Sequence record: PQ480333.1
DNA from: Escherichia phage NRG-P0074
Direction: 5' to 3' (one strand)
DNA length: 64,000 nucleotides
The first letter of the stretch is position 1. Every line of letters starts with the position of its first letter. Positions 49,598 through 50,146 of the stretch are shown here, piece by piece. The position numbers and the translations under genes are program-made. The notes under the pieces are model-generated. The model saw only the letters and a list, made by a program, of their open reading frames with translations. It did not search any database and was not told the DNA's origin.

Positions 49598-50146
49598 ATG
49601 GCTAAAATTATTTTAGTAGATGGCCCGGATAATGCTGGTAAAACAACTTTCATTAATGACATAATGGAAATTAGTGAAAGATATGTAAAGATTGATTTCC
49701 CTAAACGAACAGTTGATGGACGTTTCGATGTTAAGTCTCGAAATGAAGTTGGCTGTTTCGAAACGATGTTGAATTATTTAGACCCTACTAAGATTTATCT
49801 GTTAGACCGTGGATATATTAGTAACTGGGTTTATGGACGTATTCGACAAGATGCGGACTCGGTTCTTGACGTTTATGAACAGGATTATGTTCGTCTTTGC
49901 CAAAACCATGATGTGTTCACAATTATTTTAACACGTAACGAAATGACTGAAAGTTTTGAAGACGACCTTATTACTTTGTCTTCATTCGGTTTTAATACAG
50001 TCATTTCACATTTTGAAGAGTTTGCAATTCATAACAAAATCCAAACGTATCAATTACTTAATCATGATGGTGCTAACAAAGTTATAGGATTTAATGCAAG
50101 CGAACGTAATGTTTTGATTACAGAAATCATCAAATGGGCTCGTTAA
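49598..50146 (+). CDS. P-loop nucleoside/nucleotide kinase-like protein
   Basis: Walker A VDGPDNAGKTT near N-terminus; LDRGY motif reminiscent of dNK/TMPK family; 182 aa. Confidence 0.55.
   Translation: MAKIILVDGPDNAGKTTFINDIMEISERYVKIDFPKRTVDGRFDVKSRNEVGCFETMLNYLDPTKIYLLDRGYISNWVYGRIRQDADSVLDVYEQDYVRLCQNHDVFTIILTRNEMTESFEDDLITLSSFGFNTVISHFEEFAIHNKIQTYQLLNHDGANKVIGFNASERNVLITEIIKWAR

Follow-up and report, generated by a model that had tools for sequence, protein, structure and literature searches.

What is the role of a small P-loop kinase in a phage that already encodes the gp1 deoxynucleoside monophosphate (dNMP) kinase and tk? This question is raised by the window, which here means the whole analysed stretch of 64,000 nucleotides from Escherichia phage NRG-P0074 (PQ480333.1), where an open reading frame (ORF) for 182 aa at 49598..50146 on the plus strand lies between a DNA modification locus and uvsX (50245..51417). 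A sequence-only reading, made before any database search, had described this gene, hereafter the kinase gene, as a third kinase of the phage, and both other enzymes are indeed present in the window. The gp1-type dNMP kinase lies at 545..1279 on the plus strand (phmmer E=4.6e-95 with T4 gp1) and tk at 12272..12853 (E=7.7e-105 with the T4 sequence); both matches to the T4 queries have E<1e-90. The analysis presented below places the kinase in the pathway of 5-hydroxycytosine (5hoC) glycosylation as an obligatory partner of its synthase, and gives about an even chance to its being a dedicated 5-hydroxy-dCMP (5hodCMP) kinase.

The pathway was worked out only in 2025-2026. DNA of phage RB69 carries arabinosylated 5-hydroxycytosine and not arabinosyl-hydroxymethylcytosine (Lee et al., NAR 2026, PMC13326640). 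The RB69 thymidylate synthase (TS) homolog gp48, which is marked by the substitution D169N, has demonstrated activity as a flavin-dependent 5hodCMP synthase, and RB69 gp45 to gp55 are placed in the pathway, with gp45 appearing in Table 1 as ‘Nucleotide kinase’ (PMC13326640). For gp45 the same paper gives only a structural match, with neither an assay nor a discussion of its role, and neither the Thanatos paper nor the RB69 paper of 2018 refers to it. The kinase, found in 343 phage genomes, is the only universally conserved member of the cassette for which the literature searched reports no experiment. Knowledge of its substrate would tell whether a dedicated 5hodCMP kinase is needed by phages that have gp1, and would bear on the open question of whether the first sugar is added before or after replication. 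A correct description of the pathway also matters for engineered or therapeutic RB69-like, Acinetobacter and Klebsiella phages with DNA of the 5hoC type.

Kinase gene and its conservation

The gene is already known and annotated. Its product, which has an ATG start according to the ORF list and the window sequence and begins with MAKIILVDGPDNAGKTT, is 100% identical to WBF82712.1, which is annotated as ‘thymidylate kinase’ in phage a20, and matches RB69 gp45 (RB69p045, NP_861735.1) at 180 of 182 residues (99%), so that it is the same gene in another Mosigvirus; in the literature this gene is listed as the nucleotide kinase of the cassette. The position between gp46:47 and uvsX is shared with RB69, and the thymidylate kinase (TMK) structures reported as matches of gp45, 4gmd and 4s35 (PMC13326640), are also found for the window protein. 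The region shares 99.2% identity with Escherichia phage a20, and 98-99% with about 150 further genomes of RB69-like phages (Mosigvirus).

The kinase is a real conserved gene and no chance ORF. It was detected by tblastn in 343 of the 50,697 phage records over which all record counts in this work were taken, every match having at least 80% coverage and 35-100% identity, and the ORFs on the opposite strand at the locus are all shorter than 60 aa. The family is small, with 317 cluster representatives among 1.84 billion in an exhaustive profile search (E<=1e-3).

The gene immediately upstream is GT1 (48697..49596, plus strand, 299 aa; RB69 gp46:47), which matches phrog_3891 at E=3.4e-156 and for which a function as base-proximal glycosyltransferase is proposed (PMC13326640). 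The junction of the two genes, read from the sequence, occupies 49588..49600 on the plus strand: the GAGGA Shine-Dalgarno sequence of the kinase (49588-49592) is inside the coding end of GT1, the GT1 stop codon follows at 49594-49596 and the kinase ATG at 49598-49600. Only 1 nt separates stop and start codons, which suggests that the two genes are translationally coupled.

Genomic association with the 5-hydroxycytosine cassette

The strongest evidence for the role of the kinase is its genomic association. GT1, with 348 phage records, is distributed over hosts in the same way as the kinase. TS homologs of the D169N type are found in 373 records, 31 of them at less than 60% identity, those sampled being from Rhizobium or Agrobacterium phages; outside these phages about 342 records remain. 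At the level of genera the counts for kinase, GT1 and TS homolog are nearly superimposable. The gp1-type dNMP kinase occurs in 1765 phage records, whatever their type of modification.

The genes around the kinase were inspected in JS10 (Dhakavirus), fHyAci03 (Lazarusvirus), SJ_PmiM (Bragavirus), Shewanella phage Thanatos-1, the five metagenomic contigs L005, L008, L009, L011 and L012, and the window itself (Mosigvirus). A TS homolog is located beside the kinase or a few genes away in all ten contexts, and each of these homologs, including that of the window (47981..48697, plus strand; RB69 gp48; PF00303 at E=2.3e-15), has the residues N169 and D177 that form the 5hodCMP-synthase signature (D169N and N177D). 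Contig L009 encodes a second, canonical ThyA that lacks the signature. The sequence-only reading had the kinase merely adjacent to the modification locus; the position is right, but the near 1:1 co-occurrence makes it a component of the cassette, the obligatory partner of the 5hodCMP synthase and GT1.

The gene order varies. The order TS-GT1-kinase is found in Mosigvirus, Lazarusvirus, Thanatos-1, L008 and L009, the kinase precedes the TS homolog in JS10 and Proteus phage SJ_PmiM, and in L011 and L012 it directly follows the TS homolog with no glycosyltransferase gene in between. Contig L012 (5.4 kb) contains genes for MazG, a 207-aa ORF product, the TS homolog, the kinase and a dCMP deaminase; no sugar-pathway gene was recognised on it, and two neighbouring ORFs have no family match. 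This gene set therefore ties the kinase to a nucleotide-level step. In Thanatos-1, TH1_063 (L010, 6090-6992) lies between the TS homolog and the kinase and is the GT1 counterpart by synteny; it was reported to act as a UDP-xylose pyrophosphorylase in vitro (PMC12838424), which conflicts with a glycosyltransferase assignment.

A second TMK-like kinase occupies the same position in Pootjesviridae. In Rhizobium phage RL2RES, genes 093-098 (L016, 11336-15476) encode an HD protein, a phrog_139 dNMP kinase, the 150-aa RL2RES_095, a D169N TS homolog, a phrog_3891 GT1 and a TMK-like kinase of phrog_37904 (RL38J1_214/RL2RES_098), which is also labelled ‘Nucleotide kinase’ in PMC13326640. This protein differs from the window kinase in having an arginine in its P-loop (LEGLDRTGKDT) and no DR motif, and it scores 15 bits with the hidden Markov model (HMM) of the window kinase family, so it looks like a non-orthologous replacement in the same slot. 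The sugar decoration made by RL2RES is a different one. One slot in pathways with different sugars is thus filled by two unrelated TMK-like kinases, which indicates that a kinase of this kind is a requirement of the 5hoC module itself, and that the requirement follows 5hoC and not arabinose.

Fold and family of the kinase

The kinase is a divergent clade of the TMK superfamily and no bona fide TMK. PHROG 761, named ‘thymidylate kinase’, matches it at E=3.7e-45. Pfam gives no match to PF02223 at E<=1, and the NCBIfam model TIGR00041 gives 16 bits, below its cut-off of 83.25 and over the P-loop only. The fold is nevertheless that of TMKs. An AlphaFold2 model built on 19 homologs has a predicted local distance difference test (pLDDT) score of 87.5, with confidence falling at residues 31-50 (the acceptor loop) and 121-130 (the LID, about 60), and its 50 best Foldseek matches in the PDB are almost all thymidylate kinases (E 2e-6 to 1e-4, TM-score 0.5-0.65, 12-19% identity), with YorR and dCK also among the matches. 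In BFVD, a member of the kinase family itself comes first and viral TMKs follow. A profile of 47 family sequences matches YorR over nearly its full length at E=1.7e-9 and the TMKs of yeast, Aquifex, Candida, S. aureus and vaccinia at 1e-9 to 1e-7, and hhalign gives probabilities of 94.9% for human TMK (TMPK) and 92.8% for E. coli Tmk. An NMP-kinase fold with the P-loop GxxxxGK[ST] and a D-R-(Y/F/H) motif, by which TMKs are recognised, is present in the kinase. The weak scores in curated libraries taken together with the TMK fold and profile matches therefore define a divergent clade, for which databases probably give the wrong name with ‘thymidylate kinase’.

Of the two types named earlier, dNK/TMPK and gluconokinase, the first is supported by PHROG, Foldseek, profiles and hhalign, and no search supported a gluconokinase. 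An unrelated ATPase of replication or packaging, which would have spoken against a small-molecule kinase, found no support in any search either; matches to RecA and midasin in the profile searches were discarded as artefacts of repeated P-loops in long chains. A single-sequence phmmer search of the PDB gave only noise at the P-loop level (RecA fusions, thioredoxin).

YorR of the Bacillus prophage SPbeta (PDB 2axp/3kb2) is the best sequence match among solved structures, covering residues 3-152. It is a short TMK-like kinase of the phage type with the motifs ‘EGPD..K.T’ and ‘DRF.YSNLVY’, and differs from the window kinase family in keeping the LID arginines RLRVRGDE, where the family has F-E-D-D. 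No function is known for YorR, nor any DNA modification for SPbeta. With the gp1-type dNMP kinase the window kinase would share a reaction class, the conversion of a modified dCMP to its dCDP; homology is not seen, as the family HMM matched only the ORF at 49598 among the ORFs of the window and not gp1 (545-1279).

Predicted active site of the kinase

Residue conservation was counted over 47 diverse family members, and G9, G14, K15, D70 and R71 are invariant in all of them. The P-loop VDGPDNAGKTT, which the sequence-only reading had found at the N-terminus, is formed by residues 7-17 (49616..49648; G9-x4-G14-K15-T16) and is confirmed by the sequence, hhalign and the column counts. The DRGY motif, likewise noticed there, comprises residues 70-73 (49805..49816), and its D70-R71 pair aligns with D96-R97 of the TMK DRY motif. 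The acceptor-binding segment covers residues 34-58 (49697..49771) and was placed by the HMMER alignment to yeast TMK, the hhalign alignment to human TMPK and column counts. The last segment, also placed by alignments and column counts, starts with R113 after strand 4 and continues to the LID-like F120-E-D122-D123-L-I (49934..49972). All of these features are on the plus strand.

Further residues of human TMPK have counterparts in the kinase. FPKR37 aligns by HMMER and hhalign with FPER45, which binds the dNMP phosphate, and S75, N76 and Y79 align with S101, G102 and F105. The kinase lacks a stretch of 17 residues that TMKs have between FPER and helix 3. In both the yeast and the human alignments, S47-R48-N49-E50 (E50 at nt 49745-49747) pairs with S73-A74-N75-R76, and the column of the arginine that binds O4 of thymine (human R76) holds Glu or Asp in 35 of the 47 members and Arg in none. 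An acidic residue at this position fits recognition of the N4 amino group of cytosine. E50 in place of R76 may thus be a switch from thymine to cytosine, with the carboxylate as the acceptor for the amino group, and can be read as a parallel to the N177D switch of the adjacent TS homolog.

The comparison with thymidylate kinases (PF02223; human DTYMK, yeast Cdc8, vaccinia A48R) consequently has two sides. Fold, P-loop, FPxR, S-x-N and DR are common to both, and the window kinase differs by the low identity, the deletion after FPxR, E50 for R76, N12 in the P-loop and the apparent lack of LID arginines. A genuine dTMP kinase that supplies dTTP, as the name in PHROG 761 and in many GenBank records implies, would agree with the TMK fold and its P-loop, FPxR and DR motifs. 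The window kinase nevertheless scores below the cut-offs of PF02223 and TIGR00041, its thymine-binding position is acidic, and its phyletic pattern follows the 5hodCMP synthase about 1:1 instead of the need for dTTP: it is absent from about 1400 gp1-bearing phages that have no 5hodCMP synthase and need dTTP equally. dTMP is already covered by gp1, as established for T4 gp1, and by the host Tmk. This assignment is quite improbable.

Proposed reaction and points against it

The favoured explanation is a dedicated 5hodCMP kinase. The TS homolog two genes upstream would supply 5hodCMP, which the kinase would phosphorylate with ATP to 5-hydroxy-dCDP (5hodCDP); the phage polymerase would receive the triphosphate after a further phosphorylation by the host NDP kinase. 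The window kinase would work alongside the general gp1 dNMP kinase, or kinetically ahead of it. The step from 5hodCMP to 5hodCDP is the sole kinase step of the published pathway without an assigned enzyme. The TMK fold, the conserved catalytic core, the acidic residue at the base-recognition position and the linkage to the synthase rather than to the sugar all point to this explanation. The analysis shows the fold, the conservation of the ATP-binding and DR motifs and the genomic linkage; we infer from these the substrate and the discrimination of cytosine from thymine through E50.

Several observations weigh against this explanation. The gp1-type kinase of RB69, gp159, turns 5hodCMP into 5hodCDP in vitro, and the synthase together with gp1 suffices for incorporation of 5hoC into E. 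coli DNA (PMC13326640). A second kinase for a step that gp1 catalyses looks redundant, and this is a weak point. No assay or knockout of the kinase was found in the literature searched, from which He et al. 2026 and Mahler et al. 2025 were absent. The equivalence of E50 and R76 comes from alignments with type I TMKs across the 17-residue deletion, the E50 region has a pLDDT of only 66-71 in the AlphaFold2 model, and the hhalign alignment to E. coli Tmk is ambiguous at the base-binding segment and does not reproduce the mapping of E50. A subfamily fused to a second domain, described below, lacks FPKR and has Arg, Lys or Ala near the E50 position. Finally, the sequence shows no evident counterpart of the catalytic arginines that are canonical in either TMK class. 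N12 occupies the P-loop position of the catalytic Arg of class I TMKs, where none of the 47 members has Arg, and the LID-like segment F120-x-D122-D123 is acidic where YorR has arginines (RLRVRGDE). R113, directly after strand 4, is the sole near-invariant basic residue of the LID-like region (43 of 47 members) and might substitute for the canonical catalytic Arg.

The apparent absence of these arginines would be easier to understand if the protein were another small-molecule kinase, such as one that recycles UMP or UDP for UDP-arabinose, or a non-catalytic P-loop partner that serves as scaffold for the synthase and GT1. The length of 182 aa, compared with 190-216 aa for most matched TMK chains, and the deletion in the acceptor lobe point in the same direction. 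Strict retention of K15 and D70-R71 throughout the 47 diverse members nevertheless speaks for catalysis; the AfhE-like protein has already been given the sugar-kinase step (PMC13326640), and UDP released by glycosyltransfer needs only the host NDP kinase. Such a role is decidedly unlikely.

The redundancy with gp1 would disappear if the substrate were already glycosylated. GT1 would arabinosylate 5hodCMP before replication, the kinase would phosphorylate the arabinosyl-5-hydroxy-dCMP, which is bulky and in this scheme could not be handled by gp1, and the polymerase would incorporate the glycosylated dCTP. This would explain the second kinase although gp1 accepts 5hodCMP, and its presence beside GT1 in every 5hoC phage. 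Single purified glycosyltransferases supplied with UDP-Araf or UDP-Arap do not arabinosylate DNA that contains 5hoC, and the published experiments leave arabinosylation of the mononucleotide and a post-replicative first step undistinguished (PMC13326640); the failure in vitro would also be explained if the first sugar were placed on the free nucleotide. The single nucleotide between GT1 and the kinase, with the ribosome-binding site inside the GT1 coding end, and the recurrence of the TS-GT1-kinase order, in RL2RES with a non-orthologous kinase, agree with such a coupling, and the invariant pair D122-D123 could, speculatively, bind sugar hydroxyls.

That order is not universal, however, since the kinase precedes the TS homolog in two phages and follows it with no glycosyltransferase between them in two contigs, and a pool of glycosylated dNTP is hypothetical. 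To our knowledge, all DNA glycosylations characterised so far are post-replicative, which counts against sugar addition to the free nucleotide. The result with DLP3 gp76/77 was counted in favour of post-replicative glycosylation (PMC13326640). A kinase for the glycosylated nucleotide is on the whole unlikely. It keeps some weight because a second 5hodCMP kinase beside gp1 looks redundant, GT1 and the kinase are closely coupled, and the first glycosylation is yet to be reconstituted.

Kinase-glycosylase fusions in metagenomes

In some distant relatives of the kinase, 314-357 aa long (P0059, P0060, P0065 and five more), the C-terminal part is a DNA-glycosylase domain of the MBD4-like HhH-GPD type; its match to MBD4 has E~1e-9, and the catalytic Asp is retained within GKYaiDSfRI. 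The fusion genes were located at 8001-9074 of L005, 1446-2390 of L011 and 127-1092 of L006. Those of P0059 and P0060 lie directly beside D169N TS homologs (L005, L011), where the upstream side is visible, and the contigs with P0065 (L006) start at the fusion gene itself. The fusions lack the FPKR motif. Among isolate phages none was found at a coverage of at least 80%, and they were seen in metagenomes only. These proteins may do something different, and the reading of the window protein as a 5hodCMP kinase is unchanged by them.

A base-flipping module beside D169N TS homologs, in proteins without the motif that binds the dNMP phosphate, could hint at a kinase that acts at the DNA level, on 5hoC or its sugar, by analogy with the 5-hydroxymethyluracil DNA kinase (5-HMUDK) of thymidine-hypermodifying phages. 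The 5-HMUDK of Pseudomonas phage M6, gp54, is likewise a P-loop kinase of small size, and its gene is near that of a TS homolog within a cluster for DNA hypermodification; the enzyme acts on DNA and has no DR or FPxR motif. Its match to the kinase family HMM, obtained by searching one 39-kb locus, scores 12 bits (E=0.0017) and covers the P-loop only, and the idea of a DNA kinase was rejected at the level of homology. The window protein has no HhH-GPD or other DNA-binding module and keeps FPKR. The final product of the pathway contains a direct ether link but no phosphate (PMC13326640), and by chemical reasoning an aryl phosphate would be an implausible leaving group for glycosylation. A DNA-level kinase is highly improbable.

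Other genes of the cassette

Between the DNA polymerase gene and uvsX, the window encodes in order a SIS-domain protein, a nucleotidyltransferase/sugar kinase, a homing endonuclease, a HAD-like phosphatase, a U32-like protein, a 79-aa ORF product, the TS homolog, GT1 and the kinase. With the homing endonuclease set aside, the order from SIS to uvsX is the same as in RB69. A scan for promoters and terminators in the cassette gave fewer sites than shuffled controls.

The remaining genes of the cassette are all on the plus strand. The SIS-domain arabinose-5-phosphate isomerase (42896..43531; RB69 gp55) is identified by Pfam SIS at E=1e-10 and the phage a20 annotation. The bifunctional nucleotidyltransferase/sugar kinase (43713..45398; RB69 gp52:53, AfhE-like) matches Pfam NTP_transferase at E=8.5e-10 and has the role given in PMC13326640. 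The HAD-like phosphatase (46110..46484; RB69 gp51, AfhF-like) has no Pfam match and was mapped by the phage a20 annotation, its role being proposed in PMC13326640. The homing endonuclease (45383..46144, 253 aa), which has I-TevI-type DNA-binding and NUMOD domains, is inserted between the AfhE-like and HAD genes and overlaps both; RB69 and most Mosigvirus genomes lack it, and their alignment starts at position 46119 of the window.

GT1 is one intact ORF of 299 aa in the window and two ORFs in the RB69 reference (RB69p046 and RB69p047; L017, 4598-5498). The split in RB69 is described as a sequencing error (PMC13326640), and the intact ORF of the window agrees with this statement.

The conserved 79-aa ORF (47699..47938; RB69 gp49), assigned by phrog_8601 (E=6e-52) and synteny with RB69, shares 4 nt with the U32-like gene, at the stop of the latter. 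The U32-peptidase-like protein itself (46542..47702; RB69 gp50; PF01136 at E=7.3e-11; phrog_5757) was guessed to be a reductase (PMC13326640). Its gene is found in the cassettes of Mosigvirus, Thanatos-1 (L010, 7557-8693) and SJ_PmiM (L004, 3485-4651), and none is apparent in the JS10 and fHyAci03 stretches, as judged by gene sizes and annotations only. The window has this U32-like gene in its cassette and no FMN-reductase or flavodoxin-like gene. Genes of the latter types adjoin the 5hodCMP-synthase homolog in two metagenomic cassettes (L005, 9068-9613; L008, 5507-6016), and such flavin-type neighbours fit the flavin dependence of the synthase.

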